From a virus, in UHGV virus genome UHGV-0200722: a stretch of 40,554 bases of DNA; one strand, written 5' to 3'. Position 1 is the stretch's first letter; every line of letters starts with the position of its first letter. Shown here in pieces: positions 28,275 to 40,368 of this stretch. A model generated the notes under the pieces. That model did not search any database. It saw only the letters and a program-made list of their open reading frames with translations, and was not told the DNA's origin. A program made the position numbers and the translations under genes.

Positions 28275-28619
28275 GGCAGACCCACAATCAGGGCCTGCCG
28301 ATTTTGATTACTCCACCTTTTCATCAATCCAGTCCGCCCACCACTGCATCATTTCTCTGCGCTTATCGTGGCAGATGCCTCACTATCACACGGTGATGGT
28401 TCATTACTGGTTTGCATAATGGATAGAGAACTGAGGATAAAAGATATCCCAAAACCCCAAAATCTCATCTTTAGGATTTGCAGAAAGGGAGGCGTGAACA
28501 AATACCTGCGCATGAAAACGGAACTAGTCCGGATGCGATATTTTTGGTGATCACGTACATCATCAACGAAGCGCGTTATGGTGAGTTTTATGACTGCCAA
28601 GTAATGTGAAAATTGCGAT

Positions 28620-30736: not shown

Positions 30737-30800
30737 TGGTGTTCTTTCAGTTCTTCAATTCGAATATTGGTTACATTGTTTTCATATATGAATAAATAAA

Positions 30801-30980
30801 TTAGCTTTTTTCGTTGCCTTCGCGTTCTTTATTAATTTTGACAAACTCGTTTTTACCACGCTCTCCAAATGCGTCTTTAGAGTCGTTGTATCCGCAATCG
30901 CAGCACACATAATCACCAGACCATCCACGCATTGTTTTTTCTTTTGCAATATTTCCAGAACCGCATTTTGGACAAGACAT
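30801..30980 (-). CDS. Small zinc-ribbon protein
   Basis: Start MSCPKCGSGNIA... with a GGAGG RBS; two CxxC pairs (CPKC...CCDC). Confidence 0.55.
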   Translation of the reverse strand: MSCPKCGSGNIAKEKTMRGWSGDYVCCDCGYNDSKDAFGERGKNEFVKINKEREGNEKS

Positions 30981-36040: not shown

Positions 36041-36098
36041 AAAATTGATGTGAGAGTTTACCTGCTTGAATTTTCAGGTAATTAATTTTTTGGATTGA

Positions 36099-36124
36099 TA
36101 TAAAAAAGCCCGCTTTGCGGGCTA
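36099..36124 (-). terminator. Rho-independent terminator after the cI-linked operon (read on - strand)
   Basis: AGCCCGC-aaag-GCGGGCT followed by TTTTTTATAT on the - strand. Confidence 0.75.
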
Positions 36125-36134
36125 AAAGGAGATG

Positions 36135-36449
36135 TCAGAAGCTATTTGGATTGCTTGGCCATTGCGGCAATTTTGATTCTACTGGGGTGTGTTTGGGTTT
36201 GAGTCCGTTTAAGTAGTCAAGGCGCTCAATGGCGCATTTATACATAGCAATCTGCTCTGATGACATGTCGTCGTATGACATGCCTTTGAACTTTTTAATT
36301 ATCGATTCTGCCTCATGTATAAGATTCTTCTTCCTCATGAGTTCAGTTGTATGCTTAGAGCTTACAGGAGATAACTTTGCCCATATGAAGCAGATGATTA
36401 CAACAGCGACTACTATGCCGGGTATAAACATTTGCTGCTTTATCCTCAA
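36135..36449 (-). CDS. Small single-pass membrane protein cotranscribed with cI (candidate lysogen-expressed exclusion or defence protein)
   Basis: 104 aa with N-terminal TM helix FIPGIVVAVVIICFIWAKL; start codon overlaps the cI stop (ATGA); a terminator follows directly. Confidence 0.65.
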   Translation of the reverse strand: MRIKQQMFIPGIVVAVVIICFIWAKLSPVSSKHTTELMRKKNLIHEAESIIKKFKGMSYDDMSSEQIAMYKCAIERLDYLNGLKPKHTPVESKLPQWPSNPNSF

Positions 36450-37132
36450 ACTTTTGGCAGATCGTCCTGGTCTACGTACCTGGTGTGTTTCACAATAGCT
36501 GAAACAAAATGCATTTTATCAACTTCTTCAACAGGAAGAGTGATTGGGCGGTGATCACTGTTTATGCTACTAAACTGATAATCACCGTCTCTTGTTTTGT
36601 TCATGATCTTTATCATGTTGTGACCGTCTTTGGTCCTTACAAAGACTTCATCACCTGGATGTACTGGCGTATTTGGTTCAATAACAACATATTCTCCTGA
36701 CTGAATCCTTGGCCACATGCTGTCACCCTTAACCTTCAGACCGTAAGCATCTTTATCGCCGCTGTAGATGCTTAACCAACCGGATCTGAATTCAATCATA
36801 TCCACTGAGCCATCAACTCCCAAAACGGCTTCACCAATTACCGGAACAAAACCCGCACGAACGTTACCCGCAAACTCAAGATGGTCCGTAGCTCCAGCTT
36901 TACCATCTGCAAGCATGTCCATCCATCCGCGTGGGAGATTAAAAGATTTTTCAATTAGTTCCATCATATCGTCAGCAATGCGTTTTTTTCCGCTTTTTCC
37001 TTCCGGATACAGCATTCTGGAAACGTATGATGGTTCCCTTTCTATTCGACGAGCCAACTCTGAGGCCTTTCCATTACAGAATCGGTCTCTTATCTCTATC
37101 AGCCTTAGTCGTCTTTGTTCGTATTTATCCAT
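36446..37132 (-). CDS. cI: cI-type immunity repressor (HTH plus S24 LexA-like autopeptidase domain)
   Basis: 228 aa; C-terminal domain with Ala-Gly site(s), GDSM serine motif and a downstream Lys; divergent from cro; flanked by OR and OL. Confidence 0.9.
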   Translation of the reverse strand: MDKYEQRRLRLIEIRDRFCNGKASELARRIEREPSYVSRMLYPEGKSGKKRIADDMMELIEKSFNLPRGWMDMLADGKAGATDHLEFAGNVRAGFVPVIGEAVLGVDGSVDMIEFRSGWLSIYSGDKDAYGLKVKGDSMWPRIQSGEYVVIEPNTPVHPGDEVFVRTKDGHNMIKIMNKTRDGDYQFSSINSDHRPITLPVEEVDKMHFVSAIVKHTRYVDQDDLPKV

Positions 37133-37149
37133 GATTTAATTCTATCTTT

Positions 37150-37210
37150 GATTACCTGCCGGTAAATAACCTATGGGTATTGATTTGCTTTTTACCTACA
37201 GGTAAACTCA
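37150..37210. promoter_or_regulatory. OR/PR/PRM region: operators TACCTGCCGGTA (37154..37165) and TACCTACAGGTA (37194..37205); PR -35 TTGATT (37180..37185), -10 TAAACT (37203..37208)
   Basis: Same 12-bp operator family as OL; sits between divergent cI and cro. Confidence 0.7.
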
Positions 37211-37240
37211 TCTTATTCAACAACGGGAAGGAGATAGCAA

Positions 37241-37471
37241 ATGGAAGAACTCCGCTTGTATCTGAACTCCCTTTCACTGGAAGAGCAGAGAGAATTTGCC
37301 ACCAAGTGCGGAACTTCTATCGGCTATTTGAGGAAAGCACTTAGCCGTAATCATGAATTGGGCGCAGCACTTTGTGTTCTGATTGAGAGGTTCAGCAATG
37401 GTGAAGTGACTCGCAAAGACCTTCATCCGGTTGATTGGGAAAGCATCTGGCCTGAATTAATGGCCGCTTAA
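37241..37471 (+). CDS. cro: Cro-like repressor (HTH)
   Basis: 76-aa protein transcribed divergently from cI off PR; HTH-like segment ATKCGTSIGYLRKAL; GGAGA RBS. Confidence 0.75.
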   Translation: MEELRLYLNSLSLEEQREFATKCGTSIGYLRKALSRNHELGAALCVLIERFSNGEVTRKDLHPVDWESIWPELMAA

Positions 37472-37479
37472 GTTATTAA

Positions 37480-37511
37480 CGCTCTTACACATCCCCGCCC
37501 TGAAAAAGGGC
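37480..37511 (+). promoter_or_regulatory. nutR (boxA CGCTCTTAC, boxB GCCCTGAAAAAGGGC)
   Basis: CGCTCTTACACATCCCCGCCCTGAAAAAGGGC; matches lambda nutR as recalled. Confidence 0.85.
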
Positions 37512-37587
37512 ATTACCAGAAACAAATCTCTATGGTTTTGCGTTTCTTTGCGAAGCCAACTCTATCTAATCATTAAGGAAATTATCT

Positions 37588-37869
37588 ATGGGTACTATTG
37601 CAACTAAAAGCAAGAAAGCGGCTCGCATCGAGTCAGCCTTGCTGAACAAACTGGCACTGATGGGGCAGAAGACATTCGCTCGAGCAATGGGGGTTCCTGA
37701 ATATCAGGTAAGCCGATGGAAGAATGGTTTCTTCTCGCAGGTAAGCATGATGCTGGCTGTTCTGGAATACGGAATCGAAGACGATGAAATGGCTGAGCTG
37801 ACTAAGCGGCTTGCCAATTACCTGACAAAAGAAAAAACCCCGAAGAACGGCGAATTCTTCGAGGCCTGA
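37588..37869 (+). CDS. cII: cII transcriptional activator
   Basis: Aligns with lambda cII (RIESALLNK...SRWK...MLLAVLE.G..DD.MA.L). Confidence 0.85.
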   Translation: MGTIATKSKKAARIESALLNKLALMGQKTFARAMGVPEYQVSRWKNGFFSQVSMMLAVLEYGIEDDEMAELTKRLANYLTKEKTPKNGEFFEA

Positions 37870-37903
37870 TGTAGAAAGACTGGATCAATCCACAGGAGTA
37901 ATT

Positions 37904-38065
37904 ATGACAAAACGTCGTAAGAAATACCAGGAAAAAGAAGAGATTCGACACCCTGATTCACCTGAGGGATTAGTGGTAGCCGCAGCAAATAACAGGGCGT
38001 TCGCAGAGCGCCTTGTTGGTGTTTACAGACTAGCCAAAGCAGGAGTGAAACATGGGCGTCGTTAA
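37904..38065 (+). CDS. Hypothetical small basic protein between cII and O
   Basis: Manual 53-aa ORF (MTKRRKKYQEKEEIRHPDSPEGLVVAAANNRAFAERLVGVYRLAKAGVKHGRR) with an AGGAG RBS; its end overlaps the O start. Confidence 0.4.
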   Translation: MTKRRKKYQEKEEIRHPDSPEGLVVAAANNRAFAERLVGVYRLAKAGVKHGRR

Positions 38066-38942
38066 GTTAGCTGATTACAGGCATAACCCTGTACAACATC
38101 AGGAGGCATCCAGTATGGGGTATGTCTCTATACACCGCCAGTTTATGGACAGCAGGCTCTATAAGGACTCTCAGGCAGTACATCTTTGGCTTCACTTAAT
38201 CCTCAAGGCTAATCACGAATCTACTGTCGTCAATACGGATATCGGTCCGATAACTGTTGATCGCGGTCAGATGATAACTGGACGCCCGTCGCTGGTCAGA
38301 GAAACATTCATCCCCGACAACAAAGTTCGGAGCTTATTACGGACTTTTGAGTCGAAAGGGATGCTTAATATTTGCTCGATGGGGAAGAAATTTAGCCTGT
38401 TTACAATCGTTAAATATGACGATTTTCAGGCAAAAAATTGTCCAACGGTTGTCCAACGGTTGTCCAACGCAACCCCCAGTAATGGCGCCGCTCTCAGCGG
38501 AGATTGTCCAACGGATGTCCAACGGTTGTCCATAAACAATAATATAAATAATATCTCTAATACTGACGTATTAGAGAGTACCGCAGCAGACAAAAAGTCT
38601 GACAAGAAAAAACCTTCCGTTAGCTGTCAGGATGTTGTCGATGCTTACCACGAAATCCTTCCTGAAGCGCCAAGAATCCGCGCACTGAATGACAAGCGTA
38701 AAAACCAGATCCGAACGTTCTGGCGCAAAGCCGGAGTGATAACCCGCCAGCTTGACGGGCATGGGTTCACGATGCAGGACTGGAGAAATTATTTGAGCTA
38801 CGTAGGCGAAAATTGCCGATGGATGTTCGAAGAGCGCCCAAACCATCAACGCGGAACCGTCTGGCACAAAAAGGGATTTGATTTCCTGCTTAACGACAAT
38901 ACCTACCTGAAAGTTCGTGAGGGTGAACACGATGACCGATAA
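38052..38942 (+). CDS. O: Replication initiator O-like protein
   Basis: 296 aa, upstream of the helicase; contains the iteron array that its N-terminal domain presumably binds. Confidence 0.8.
   Translation: MGVVKLADYRHNPVQHQEASSMGYVSIHRQFMDSRLYKDSQAVHLWLHLILKANHESTVVNTDIGPITVDRGQMITGRPSLVRETFIPDNKVRSLLRTFESKGMLNICSMGKKFSLFTIVKYDDFQAKNCPTVVQRLSNATPSNGAALSGDCPTDVQRLSINNNINNISNTDVLESTAADKKSDKKKPSVSCQDVVDAYHEILPEAPRIRALNDKRKNQIRTFWRKAGVITRQLDGHGFTMQDWRNYLSYVGENCRWMFEERPNHQRGTVWHKKGFDFLLNDNTYLKVREGEHDDR
38438..38533 (+). repeat. Replication-origin iterons: 5-6 copies of TTGTCCAACGG in two clusters inside the O gene
   Basis: ttgtccaacgg ttgtccaacgg ttgtccaacgc ... attgtccaacgg atgtccaacgg ttgtccat. 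Confidence 0.85.
38534..38575 (+). other. AT-rich segment following the iterons (candidate DNA-unwinding element of the origin)
   Basis: aaacaataatataaataatatctctaatactgacgtatta directly follows the iteron array. Confidence 0.6.
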
Positions 38943-40368
38943 TTTTTATGCGCCTCCCCATAGCATCGAGGCAGAGCAGGCGGTGATTGGTGGATTGCTT
39001 CTGGATGATGACAGCAGTGAGCGCGTCCAGAAAGTTCTGGCGATGCTGAAGCCTGATTCATTTTACAGCCGACCACACAAAATCCTTTTCGAAGAAATAA
39101 CCAGAATGCACCGGGAGCAAAAGCCAGTAGATGGCCTGACGCTTTTCGATGAACTGGAGCGTAAATCGTTAACGGCGTCTGTTGGCGGTTTTGCTTATAT
39201 CGCTGAGATCGCAAAGAACACGCCAAGCGCCGCAAACATCGTTGCCTATGCAATGCAGGTTCGCGAAACCGCAATGGAACGCTACGCCATCAACCGCATG
39301 ACTGAAGCGACGGAATTGCTCTATTCCCGCAACGGAATGACTGCGACGCAGAAGTACGAAGCTATTCAGTCGATTTTCACGCAACTGACAGACCATGCAA
39401 AAACCGGATCGCGTCGCGGCCTTCGCTCATTTGGTGAGGTCATGGAAGACTGGGTTAGCGACCTTGAGAAGCGATTTGACCCGTCAGGCGAACAACGAGG
39501 AATGAGCACAGGGATCCCATCGCTGGACAGGATGCTGTCACCGAAAGGTCTGGTGAAAGGCTCTCTGTTTGTCATTGGCGCTCGCCCTAAGATGGGGAAA
39601 ACGACGCTATACAGCCAGATGGCAATCAATTGCGCAGTGCATGAGAAAAAGCCCGCTCTGATGTTCAGTCTTGAAATGCCAGGCGACCAGATACTGGAAA
39701 AGCTGGTAGGACAGAAGTCAGGTGTTAACCCGAATATTTTTTACCTTCCGGCGACAAATGACGCTGATGACGGCTATCAGGGTGATTACGATGGTGACTT
39801 CAACAGGGCGATAGAAACAGCAAATCGCTTGAGTGAAATCGACATGCTTTACATCGACGACACGCCGGGATTATCTCTGGCTCAAATCGTCAGCGAAAGC
39901 CGTCGAATCAAGCGAGAAAAAGGATGTGTTGGCATGATTCTGGTCGATTACCTGACACTAATGACCGCTGAGAAGGCCGATCGCAACGACCTTGCTTACG
40001 GCATGATCACCAAAGGACTGAAGAACCTTGCCAAAGAGCTTGATTGCGTTGTTGTGCTTCTGACGCAGCTTAACCGCGCACTGGAAAGCCGAACCAATAA
40101 ACGCCCATTACCAAGTGACTCACGAGATACAGGGCAGATTGAACAGGATTGCGATTATTGGGTTGGGATCCATCGTGAAGGCGCTTTTGATGACAGTGTT
40201 CCACCTGGTGAAACCGAACTAATCCTTCGTCTCAATCGTCATGGCAATACCGGCACGGTGTATTGCATTCAGGCAAATGGCGCTATTTATGACACAGACC
40301 AACAGTCTGCTGAAATGCGCCGACGTGAACGCGAGGAACCGCAGTCCAAGAAGAAAGGAGGATTCTGA
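38932..40368 (+). CDS. Replicative DNA helicase (DnaB family)
   Basis: Start MTDNFYAPPHSIEAEQAVIGGLL (DnaB N-terminal signature) at 38932 overlapping the O stop; Walker A GARPKMGKTT; ~478 aa. Confidence 0.9.
   Translation: MTDNFYAPPHSIEAEQAVIGGLLLDDDSSERVQKVLAMLKPDSFYSRPHKILFEEITRMHREQKPVDGLTLFDELERKSLTASVGGFAYIAEIAKNTPSAANIVAYAMQVRETAMERYAINRMTEATELLYSRNGMTATQKYEAIQSIFTQLTDHAKTGSRRGLRSFGEVMEDWVSDLEKRFDPSGEQRGMSTGIPSLDRMLSPKGLVKGSLFVIGARPKMGKTTLYSQMAINCAVHEKKPALMFSLEMPGDQILEKLVGQKSGVNPNIFYLPATNDADDGYQGDYDGDFNRAIETANRLSEIDMLYIDDTPGLSLAQIVSESRRIKREKGCVGMILVDYLTLMTAEKADRNDLAYGMITKGLKNLAKELDCVVVLLTQLNRALESRTNKRPLPSDSRDTGQIEQDCDYWVGIHREGAFDDSVPPGETELILRLNRHGNTGTVYCIQANGAIYDTDQQSAEMRRREREEPQSKKKGGF

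Follow-up and report, generated by a model that had tools for sequence, protein, structure and literature searches.

The initiator gene of this phage carries, within its coding sequence, a short array of direct repeats, and the question it raises is whether the array marks the site at which replication begins. The repeats were analyzed in the context of the whole stretch of viral DNA (40,554 nucleotides; hereafter the window), of related loci and of known origins. On the strength of sequence comparison, the most probable answer (roughly 0.85) is that the array, the A/T tract beside it and the palindrome beyond together form the theta replication origin of a P22-like (Sf6/HK620-type) temperate phage, placed in the part of the initiator gene that encodes a linker. 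Published statements on this origin – the Sf6 record and the phage L paper – are predictions themselves. The literature searched holds no binding, unwinding or start-site mapping for this origin type (the repeat is mentioned in the phage L paper alone), and for this reason we infer the origin rather than report it.

Organization of the array and adjoining elements

The initial annotation described five to six copies of a repeat in two clusters, followed by an AT-rich segment of ~40 bp, all within the coding sequence of a gene called O. Inspection of the sequence, a repeat finder and Tandem Repeats Finder together delimit six 11-bp units that share the core TGTCCAAC and form two triplets (Table 1), with start-to-start spacings of 11, 11, 44, 11 and 11 (repeat finder) and a period of 11 at 38438-38469 and 38505-38532 (Tandem Repeats Finder): number, clustering and location within the open reading frame are thus as described. 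The second triplet ends in a unit of variant form (CCA[CT]A[AG]A), shared by the whole family, which continues into the A/T tract. The core, an 8-mer, occurs five times in the window, each time inside the array; shuffled sequences contain 1.5 copies on average, and 0 of 100 shuffles reach five. With all five copies confined to 88 bp, the cluster cannot be attributed to chance. The spacer between triplets is constant in length across iteron types, and its sequence is not conserved.

Other candidate sites were considered and set aside. An inverted copy of the iteron at 39520, inside the helicase gene, has two mismatches, is within chance expectation and was rejected. A search of 38000-39000 for a DnaA box or an IHF consensus gave nothing convincing; the DnaA-like matches have one mismatch each, and one is simply the last iteron in the opposite orientation.

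The segment following the array is AT-rich as first claimed (GC content is 22-25% over 40-bp stretches in 38520-38579, vs 47% for the whole window), but it is not a single element: a 21-bp A/T tract is followed by a perfect, AT-rich palindrome of 24 positions. The tract is among the most AT-rich of the genome (GC 17.5% over 40 bp), with those at ~30763 and ~36066 equally or more so. Folded as DNA, each strand of the palindrome is predicted to give a hairpin of -7.5 kcal/mol (z about -4).

Table 1. Coordinates of the initiator and helicase genes and of the elements of the putative origin in the window.
Feature	Position	Strand	Sequence or basis
Replication initiator gene, 296 aa	38052..38942	+	ORF; PHROG 345; Sf6 gene 43 identity
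N-terminal winged-helix domain, aa 24-124	38121..38423	+	pLDDT 75-88 (AF2)
A6 run directly before first iteron	38432..38437	+	A/T run here in every relative
Iteron triplet 1, three contiguous 11-bp direct repeats	38438..38470	+	Sequence, repeat finder, Tandem Repeats Finder
Iteron unit 1	38438-38448		TTGTCCAACGG
Iteron unit 2	38449-38459		TTGTCCAACGG
Iteron unit 3	38460-38470		TTGTCCAACGc (TTGTCCAACGC)
Spacer, GC-rich, 33 bp (three iteron periods)	38471..38503	+	GC ~60%
Iteron triplet 2	38504..38536	+	Repeat finder, Tandem Repeats Finder
Iteron unit 4	38504-38514		TTGTCCAACGG
Iteron unit 5	38515-38525		aTGTCCAACGG (ATGTCCAACGG)
Iteron unit 6	38526-38536		TTGTCCAtaaa (TTGTCCATAAA)
A/T tract, 21 bp, presumed DNA unwinding element	38533..38553	.	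One G/C
Perfect palindrome, 10-bp stem, 4-nt loop, at right edge of A/T tract	38554..38577	.	TCTCTAATAC-TGAC-GTATTAGAGA
C-terminal domain, aa 189-292, presumed helicase-recruiting	38616..38927	+	pLDDT 80-90 (AF2)
Phage DnaB-family replicative helicase, P22 gp12 type	38932..40368	+	TIGR03600 phage_DnaB, 583 bits; Pfam DnaB, DnaB_C

The initiator and its partner

The gene that contains these elements is named 'O' or gene 18 in relatives. Its product matches PHROG 345 ('replication initiation O-like', E 2.8e-85) and has 1606 homologues at E <= 1e-5; no Pfam or NCBIfam family was found for it. The structure predicted by AF2 comprises two folded domains joined by a disordered linker (aa 125-188, pLDDT below 50), and it is this linker that the origin DNA encodes: array, A/T tract and palindrome fall in aa 129-176.

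The N-terminal domain (helices at 78-85 and 89-101, strands at 105-109 and 115-119 in the AF2 model) resembles the origin-binding protein G38P of phage SPP1 (BLASTP E 7e-13, 28% identity over aa 20-127), with further matches to PHROG 2514 and 186 and, by tblastn, to SPP1 and DnaD-like phage proteins. Searches of solved structures gave marginal matches and no close relative, with all matches being winged-helix DNA binders (Foldseek E at least 0.04; PDB profile E at least 0.035). This domain is presumed to bind the iterons. The designation 'O' therefore reflects position only, and the supposed partner 'P' has likewise to be replaced: the gene downstream encodes a DnaB-family helicase. With its start set as for Sf6 gene 44, the helicase gene shares 11 nt with the end of the initiator gene, and no separate loader gene intervenes. 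The C-terminal domain accompanies DnaB-type helicase genes, as in ZF40. Similarity to P22 gp18 is limited to this domain (aa 182-291, 25% identity, E 2e-4).

Conservation of layout and co-variation of iterons with the N-terminal domain

A first scan of viral contigs returned only loci that are 98-99% identical. Such loci are suited to the analysis of polymorphism, not of divergence, and a second scan was therefore seeded with a homologue from Brenneria. The layout – triplet, 33-bp spacer, triplet, A/T tract, palindrome – was found in every relative to which the scan was applicable (~180 loci), although in two Silvania/Leclercia loci the iterons are looser and irregularly spaced. It is shared across Escherichia, Salmonella, Klebsiella, Enterobacter, Brenneria and Erwinia, and recurs in looser form in Pseudomonas Orisa01.

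While the layout is constant, the iteron itself is not: relatives carry TGTCCAAC, TGCCAACA, TTACCAGCA, TGTCCAGCC or AATCCAAC. N-terminal domains have an identity of 0.81 when their loci share an iteron type and of 0.52 when the types differ (for C-terminal domains 0.70 and 0.58), and iteron sequence varies in step with the winged-helix part of the N-terminal domain. A natural chimera (P0058) places the determinant of iteron type in aa 58-125; in Erwinia Eho59 the N-terminal domain, iterons and palindrome of the present kind are joined to a C-terminal domain of the lambda O type, beside a lambda-P-like gene. Relatives thus offer natural pairs of iteron and winged-helix specificity, plus chimeras, for mapping recognition. 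The window-type iteron contains an internal dyad (GTTG-TC-CAAC) reminiscent of lambda, which is absent from the other iteron types and for that reason is probably incidental.

The number of 66-bp modules also varies. Prophages contain one, two or three; the one- and three-module variants were seen in prophages only, no isolated phage having either, and all window-type phage records have two. Gain and loss of modules may tune the strength of the origin.

Compensatory evolution of the palindrome

The palindrome was found in 182 of 182 loci, in 19 distinct sequences. Nine of its ten pairs have changed on both sides and none on one side only; 96.7% of cells are paired, compared to 30-51% in slid controls. 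The palindrome is maintained by compensatory changes, and while this pattern is clear, current annotations omit the element. SPP1, Staphylococcus phiN315 and Vibrio phage 1.135.O lack a significant palindrome, and that of Lactobacillus Lrm1 is marginal. Origins of this initiator family, it follows, do not all need one, and we confine the claim to the enterobacterial and Pseudomonas clade, lambda and P22, in the last two of which a palindrome sits at the same place.

What the paired arms do is a separate matter. One alternative to a hairpin or cruciform is symmetric binding, in which a dimeric phage protein, for instance the C-terminal domain of the initiator or the helicase, would occupy the two arms. 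The two half-sites change together, as a co-evolving dimer would require, and C-terminal domains are more alike within a palindrome type (0.91) than between types (0.54); however, the palindrome abuts the part of the gene encoding the C-terminal domain, so this association is confounded by, and inseparable from, physical linkage. Moreover, at least 11 stem sequences occur among C-terminal domains that are clearly homologous, and what is conserved is the loop and the length of the stem, not a base-specific half-site. We think a dimer site unlikely.

A second alternative places the function in RNA, with the palindrome acting as an intrinsic terminator of leftward (antisense) transcripts or as structure in the initiator mRNA. 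On the minus strand a U-rich run follows the palindrome, a consensus scan classes it as terminator-like on that strand, and the phage L record has a minus-strand terminator over the same element; the predicted RNA hairpin amounts to -12.8 to -13.3 kcal/mol. Yet the stem has only three G-C pairs and is followed by an interrupted tail (UAUUAUUUAU), the RNA z-score reaches just -2.5 (4 of 200 shuffles fold as well), no leftward promoter is known or evident downstream, and no Rfam match was obtained at E <= 1 in 37000-39500. The changes within the stem also point away from RNA: among 174 paired cells (18 distinct sequences) there is no G-U/G-T pair, and no pair has changed on one side, a pattern more in keeping with pairing required on both strands of the DNA than with an RNA helix. 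Given further that the lambda and P22 origins hold a palindrome at the same position, a role in RNA is distinctly improbable.

The role assigned to the palindrome is speculative. It is conceivable, albeit doubtful, that the palindrome is an obligatory structural part of lambdoid origins whatever the initiator family: melting of the A/T tract by the initiator would nucleate extrusion of hairpins on both strands, locking the bubble open or providing a junction for helicase loading. If so, the extruded palindrome could in addition be the feature that Lamassu and other structure-sensing defences recognize in a phage origin. The lambda origin has reportedly been identified of late as a site at which the Lamassu defence system is enriched during infection, and structured DNA at origins is therefore of some current interest.

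Function of the array

Binding of the initiator to the array need not mean that replication starts there. The array could instead be a control element – for autoregulation of the initiator gene, for titration or handcuffing, or as a fork barrier in the manner of SPP1 oriR – with the start site elsewhere. There is precedent, in that SPP1 G38P bound at its second site is proposed to stall forks, and excess iteron arrays can inhibit replication in plasmids and lambda. Against this, the array directly adjoins an AT-rich tract, in the order found in the proven lambda and SPP1 oriL origins; and since the iteron core is confined to the array, the window offers neither a second candidate site nor a second copy of the origin comparable to SPP1 oriR. 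We regard a purely regulatory array as very unlikely.

The array is also translated, giving rise to NCPTVVQRLSN (aa 129-139) and DCPTDVQRLSI (aa 151-161). As a triplet measures 33 bp (11 codons) and the triplets are offset by 66 bp (22 codons), both are read in one frame: the repeats thereby explain the unusual peptide to which the initial annotation had drawn attention. Since 11 is not a multiple of three, each 11-bp unit is read in three frames, and the peptide repeats per 33-bp triplet only.

Polymorphism reveals which of the two levels is constrained. Among 57 unique relatives 0 of the 48 columns of the iteron cores are polymorphic, the cores being invariant at all codon positions, compared to 8 of 33 columns in the spacer and 31 of 186 plus 20 of 160 in the coding flanks. 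The A/T tract is kept in all relatives, with 0 of 17 columns reaching a minor-allele frequency of at least 0.05 among close ones. Changes in the flanks are mostly at codon position 3, while those internal to the origin are spread over all three positions. The origin is conserved at the level of DNA rather than protein. That the repeats are kept for the peptide CPTVVQRLSN, with no cis-acting function of the DNA, is hardly credible: they do lie in frame in an expressed gene and yield the peptide twice, but their period ignores the codon, the region is predicted to be disordered, the variable sites lack a codon position 3 bias, and relatives have completely different peptides (VPADYQQITT, VPTECQQSAN, CPADVQPVS) while keeping the 11-bp phasing and the CCA[AG]C core.

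A model for initiation

Taking array, A/T tract and palindrome as an origin, four steps can be proposed. Firstly, the winged-helix N-terminal domain would bind the six 11-bp iterons, building an oligomeric nucleoprotein complex, as homology to SPP1 G38P and co-variation of domain and iteron suggest; the three sites of a triplet, being head to tail and one helical turn apart, lie on roughly one face of the DNA. Secondly, by analogy with lambda and SPP1, this complex would on supercoiled DNA destabilise the adjoining 21-bp A/T tract. Thirdly – and this is the weakest step – opening might spread to the palindrome, where a cruciform with a hairpin on each strand could hold the bubble open or give a loading junction between single strand and duplex. 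Finally, the C-terminal domain may recruit the phage's own DnaB-family helicase, as the co-occurrence of domain and partner suggests, with host primase and polymerase to follow.

Comparison with known systems

In near-identical phages these repeats have previously been annotated, and described in print, as a putative origin. The initiator gene is 98.9-99% identical at the nucleotide level to its counterparts in Sf6, HK106, mEp234 and HK620-type phages (98.9% over 891 nt for Sf6 gene 43), and the Sf6 GenBank entry has a 'rep_origin, putative' at 28385-28480 (96 bp), which corresponds to window positions 38437-38532. In gene 18 of phage L all six TGTCCAACGG-type units recur and a rep_origin is annotated; the phage L paper (2020) takes 'six imprecise repeats of ... 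TGTCCAACGGA' to be the likely origin. The annotations of Sf6, HK620 and L are based on resemblance to lambda and cover the iteron array only, without A/T tract and palindrome. Comparison with the origins of related phages, which the initial annotation had proposed, therefore favors its reading of the locus as an origin – the Sf6 and L annotations, the homology to G38P and the invariant iteron cores all agree with it – and equally makes the finding an ordinary one, the same repeats having been annotated in Sf6 (deposited with the genome) and in the 2020 paper. As first stated the observation adds nothing; the comparative results are of modest value.

The likeness to P22 lies in the arrangement of genes 18 and 12. 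Gene order is the same, a gp12-type DnaB-family helicase gene follows immediately downstream, and gene 18 contains repeats, an AT-rich tract and a G/C palindrome. The P22 iterons, however, are units of ~20-24 bp of unrelated sequence, and the N-terminal domain of gp18 belongs to the lambda O family (PF04492). The present protein is not a gp18-like initiator over its full length, since the C-terminal domain alone aligns; the phage L paper gives 25% identity between L gp18 and P22 gp18.

The resemblance to lambda noted in the initial annotation is one of arrangement. Both phages have the origin midway through the initiator gene, flanked by the coding parts for an origin-binding N-terminal and a partner-binding C-terminal domain; in both, iterons are followed by an AT-rich tract and a palindrome, that of lambda also having a 10-bp stem and a 4-nt loop. 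The natural one-triplet variants described here have a parallel in lambda, where the iterons closest to the AT tract are sufficient in vitro. The iterons themselves differ, as had been stated: lambda has four inverted repeats of 18-19 bp spaced ~20-24 bp apart (annotated L106 535-619), whereas those described here are six contiguous 11-bp direct repeats with no conserved internal dyad. Nor is the initiator a homologue of lambda O: there is no PF04492 match even at E <= 1 (lambda O and P22 gp18 match at about 1e-36), and BLASTP against lambda O gives E > 4. The partner of lambda O is P, which hijacks host DnaB; the partner here is a DnaB-family helicase of the phage.

The initiator's N-terminal domain and its presumed target have an experimentally proven counterpart in SPP1. 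SPP1 G38P binds direct repeats within gene 38 that adjoin an AT-rich unwinding element, and replication has been reconstituted on oriL. As here, oriL lies within the initiator gene directly after the part encoding the N-terminal domain, and direct repeats with an 11-bp period precede an AT-rich tract; the same combination, at the same place, is present in relatives from Staphylococcus, Vibrio and Lactobacillus. SPP1 differs in having a Phg_2220_C C-terminal domain (the C-terminal domain encoded in the window gave no Phg_2220_C match), a separate helicase loader (G39P) and a second origin (oriR), and it has neither a significant palindrome after the AT tract nor the triplet-spacer-triplet arrangement. 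The comparison ties a widespread enterobacterial 'O-like' initiator to the experimentally understood G38P/oriL system of SPP1, and not to lambda O.

An iteron array within the initiator gene

The best-supported reading of the repeats in the initiator gene of this P22-like podovirus (of the Sf6/HK620 kind) is an origin of the SPP1 oriL kind in a lambdoid arrangement. Five copies of the core TGTCCAAC are present in 40.5 kb, all within the array, compared to a mean of 1.5 in shuffled sequences (five was reached in 0/100): the array reported in the initial annotation is thus real, and consists of six 11-bp units in two triplets. The ~40-bp AT-rich segment of that annotation is indeed AT-rich, but comprises two elements, an A/T tract and an AT-rich palindrome. 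Elsewhere in the window, the most AT-rich 40-mers lie at ~30762-30815 and ~36066-36108 (GC 15-17.5%).

Features of the early-right region and of the putative origin, in window coordinates
Feature	Position	Strand	Remarks
S24 repressor gene	36446-37132	minus	first in early-right region
cro-like gene			between S24 repressor gene and cII
cII	37588-37869		
Oop-like antisense unit	37835-37911	minus	
Strong terminator hairpin	37867-37835	minus	RNA dG -17.5, z -4.1; overlaps cII 3' end
Lambdoid 'boundary sequence'	37879-37911		33 nt, conserved; ACTGGATCAATCCACAGGAGTAATTATGACAAA
53-aa ORF	37904-38065		phrog_1331; position of HK97 gp53 and P22 orf48
Initiator ORF	38052-38942		296 aa
Sf6 rep_origin feature	38437-38532		GenBank
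A6 run			directly before first iteron, inside initiator ORF
Triplet 1	38438-38470		TTGTCCAACGG / TTGTCCAACGG / TTGTCCAACGC, contiguous 11-bp units
GC-rich spacer	38471-38503		33 bp
Triplet 2	38504-38536		TTGTCCAACGG / ATGTCCAACGG / TTGTCCATAAA, 11-bp units
A/T tract	38533-38553		21 bp, single G/C
Perfect palindrome	38554-38577		TCTCTAATAC-TGAC-GTATTAGAGA
DnaB-family helicase gene	38932-40368		overlaps initiator ORF

The 53-aa ORF and the initiator start overlap by 14 nt, the initiator stop and the helicase ATG by 11 nt (38932-38942), which suggests translational coupling of the three genes. The oop-like unit matched no Rfam family.

The initiator gene is 98.9-99% identical to those of Sf6, HK106, mEp234, HK75, IME10 and others, and a putative origin has previously been both annotated and published for this feature: the Sf6 record reads 'putative; repeat region reminiscent of the phage lambda origin; similar to phage HK620', and phage L, with the same array, carries a putative ori, its paper naming the six imprecise repeats as the likely origin. 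A full-text literature search with a 10-mer returned no further relevant paper, and a search for experiments on this origin type found none. What our comparison adds – kinship with the SPP1 protein G38P, co-variation of iterons and protein domain, a covarying palindrome and module copy number – are refinements; the initial interpretation as an origin is supported.

Layout and iteron types among relatives

About 190 loci were collected, from annotated phages, 14 species-representative genomes and viral contigs (80 near-identical, 80 diverged). The comparison with relatives' origins proposed in the initial annotation shows the layout kept in almost all enterobacterial relatives, with an iteron sequence that depends on lineage. 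The common plan is an A/T run, a triplet, an unconserved GC-rich spacer of 33 bp, a second triplet, an A/T tract and a palindrome (9-10-bp stem, 4-nt loop), the triplets being exactly 66 bp (22 codons) apart. Exceptions are two Silvania/Leclercia loci (L099, L100), which retain the AT tract and palindrome and have looser, irregularly spaced iterons that do not fit the 66-bp scan. The window, Sf6 and L share the iteron TGTCCAAC; HK022 and Stx phages (for example VT2-Sakai) carry TTACCAGCA; Klebsiella, Raoultella, Brenneria and Erwinia have TGCCAACA; Enterobacter has TGTCCAGCC; and two viral contigs have AATCCAAC. All types share the core CCA[AG]C, with CCA[CT]A[AG]A invariably as the final unit. 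Even at 23% protein identity, in a Pseudomonas phage, there are five AACCAG units in phase, together with an A-rich tract and a palindrome.

The number of 66-bp modules varies. Close homologues of the initiator are 274, 296 or 318 aa long, corresponding at the DNA level to one, two or three modules (3, 6 or 9 iterons), and in all variants the context of cII, small ORF, initiator and helicase is intact. Window-type isolated phages in the phage collection all have two. Prophages of E. coli and others include three-triplet alleles (9 iterons, 318 aa; L188/L189, 1866-2100) and one-triplet alleles (3 iterons, 274 aa; L190/L191, 1866-1970) of the same origin, the difference being in exact 66-bp modules; HK022-type and Klebsiella-type arrays vary likewise (three triplets in L178, one in L182). 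In vitro, lambda needs no more than the two iterons closest to the AT tract (PMC7466680).

Constraint on the putative origin DNA

Among 57 unique window-type sequences (the motif filter excluded none), polymorphic columns (minor-allele frequency at least 0.05) number 0/48 in iteron cores, 0/17 in the A/T tract and 1/24 in the palindrome (a loop base), compared to 5/18 in the 3-nt unit tails, 8/33 in the spacer, and 31/186 and 20/160 in the upstream and downstream coding flanks. Codon position 3 holds 23 of the 31 variable sites upstream; within the origin, variable sites are spread 4:6:4 over the three codon positions. These patterns, directly observed as is the anatomy, are evidence that selection acts on the origin DNA. 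Since the 11-bp period puts each unit in a different reading frame, the repetitive peptide is a by-product of the iterons, as initially proposed.

The initiator protein

Many records name the gene 'O', yet its product is no homologue of lambda O: Pfam PF04492, which lambda O and P22 gp18 match at about 1e-36, did not match the initiator even at E ≤ 1, and BLASTP against lambda O found nothing. Alignment with P22 gp18 is confined to the C-terminal 110 residues (E 2e-4). The N-domain matches G38P, the origin-binding protein of SPP1, over aa 20-127 (28% identity, E 7e-13), as well as proteins described as 'DnaD-like' or 'replisome organizer' in Staphylococcus, Lactobacillus, Bacillus and Vibrio phages.

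An AlphaFold2 model built on a 17-sequence alignment has two confident domains, aa 24-124 (pLDDT 75-88) and aa 189-292 (pLDDT 80-90), joined by a linker, aa 125-188, with pLDDT below 50. In the modeled N-domain, a beta wing follows the helix-turn-helix elements; searches with Foldseek and a PDB profile gave weak matches only, every one a winged-helix DNA binder. Iterons, A/T tract and palindrome encode aa 129-176, wholly within the linker: on this model the cis-acting origin is placed where the protein would tolerate almost any sequence.

Iteron type goes with the N-domain, whose mean identity is 0.81 within types vs. 0.52 between types (C-domain: 0.70 vs. 0.58), which we take as evidence that the N-domain reads the iterons. 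The homologous protein P0058 is a chimera, window-type over residues 1-57 and HK022-type over residues 58-125 and in its linker peptide, which would place the specificity for iterons in the helix-turn-helix and wing. Erwinia phage Eho59 (vB_EhrS_59; L008, 838-1788) is a natural swap: a window-kind N-domain (42% identity, E 4e-32) with its iterons and palindrome is joined to a C-domain of the lambda O type (70% identical to lambda O, E 6e-63), and the gene adjoins a lambda-P-like gene. N-domain and iterons thus form one module, and C-domain and helicase-delivery partner another.

Two loci are unusual. In the unannotated Salmonella phage ST-29 (CP051288; L007) two frameshifts, probably sequencing errors, break the initiator gene and the origin DNA is intact. 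A 501-bp contig from an assembly of the actinomycete Catenulispora yoronensis (L105) encodes an enterobacterial-type C-domain (56% identity), and is more likely a contaminant than a genuine gene of an actinomycete phage.

A covarying palindrome

The palindrome, absent from the existing annotations of the origin that we examined, is present in 182/182 loci (19 distinct 28-mers), its distance to the last iteron being nearly constant. In 18 distinct sequences, 96.7% of cells form Watson-Crick pairs, compared to 30-51% with the partner slid by 1-3 columns, and 0/500 shuffles reached the observed score; the hairpin finder used to locate the element favors pairing, though the aligned position is the same everywhere. 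Two-sided changes are evident in 9/10 pairs, with no one-sided changes and no G-T pairs; concerted changes in a palindrome can also come from templated mutation. The encoded peptide varies freely (ISNTDVLES, ISSTDVEES, NSLGKPNES, LLPNGSKY). Palindrome type is linked with the C-domain, a link confounded by their adjacency.

Folding energies as ssDNA are -7.5 to -9.1 kcal/mol on either strand (z from -4 to -5). The element might instead act in RNA, as a minus-strand intrinsic terminator: it resembles a weak one on that strand, and phage L annotates it so. However, its G-C content is low, the U-tract is interrupted, the RNA z-score is modest, G-U pairs are absent and Rfam gave no match; an RNA role is thus less likely than one in DNA.

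Proposed mechanism and comparison with known origins

For an origin of the oriL kind we infer binding, opening and loading. Winged-helix N-domains would occupy the phased 11-bp sites, the adjacent A/T tract would open, and the C-domain would recruit the phage's own DnaB-type helicase; the palindrome may form hairpins that stabilize the open state or assist loading.

Lambda has a hairpin at the equivalent place (10-bp stem, 4-nt loop; ATTCGTCAGA-GAAT-TCTGGCGAAT), and P22 a G/C palindrome. SPP1, phiN315 and the Vibrio phage lack a significant palindrome after the AT tract, and Lrm1 is likewise without a clear one. In these four distant phages, whose initiators have a G38P-like N-domain, an 11-bp-period array, then an AT-rich tract, directly follows the N-domain coding part; the repeat units are ACATCAA (×8; Staphylococcus phiN315, L192), GGCAAGC (×6; Vibrio phage 1.135.O, L193), TGTCCATC (×4; Lactobacillus Lrm1, L194) and GAAACGAC-type (×5; SPP1, L010). 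In SPP1 array and tract are the experimentally established oriL: the affinity of G38P for the direct repeats is nanomolar, the unwinding element is the AT-rich part, and replication of an oriL plasmid has been reconstituted (PMC6316719; PMC3561973). The likeness to oriL lies in the homologous N-domain, the intragenic array of 11-bp period and the AT-rich tract after it.
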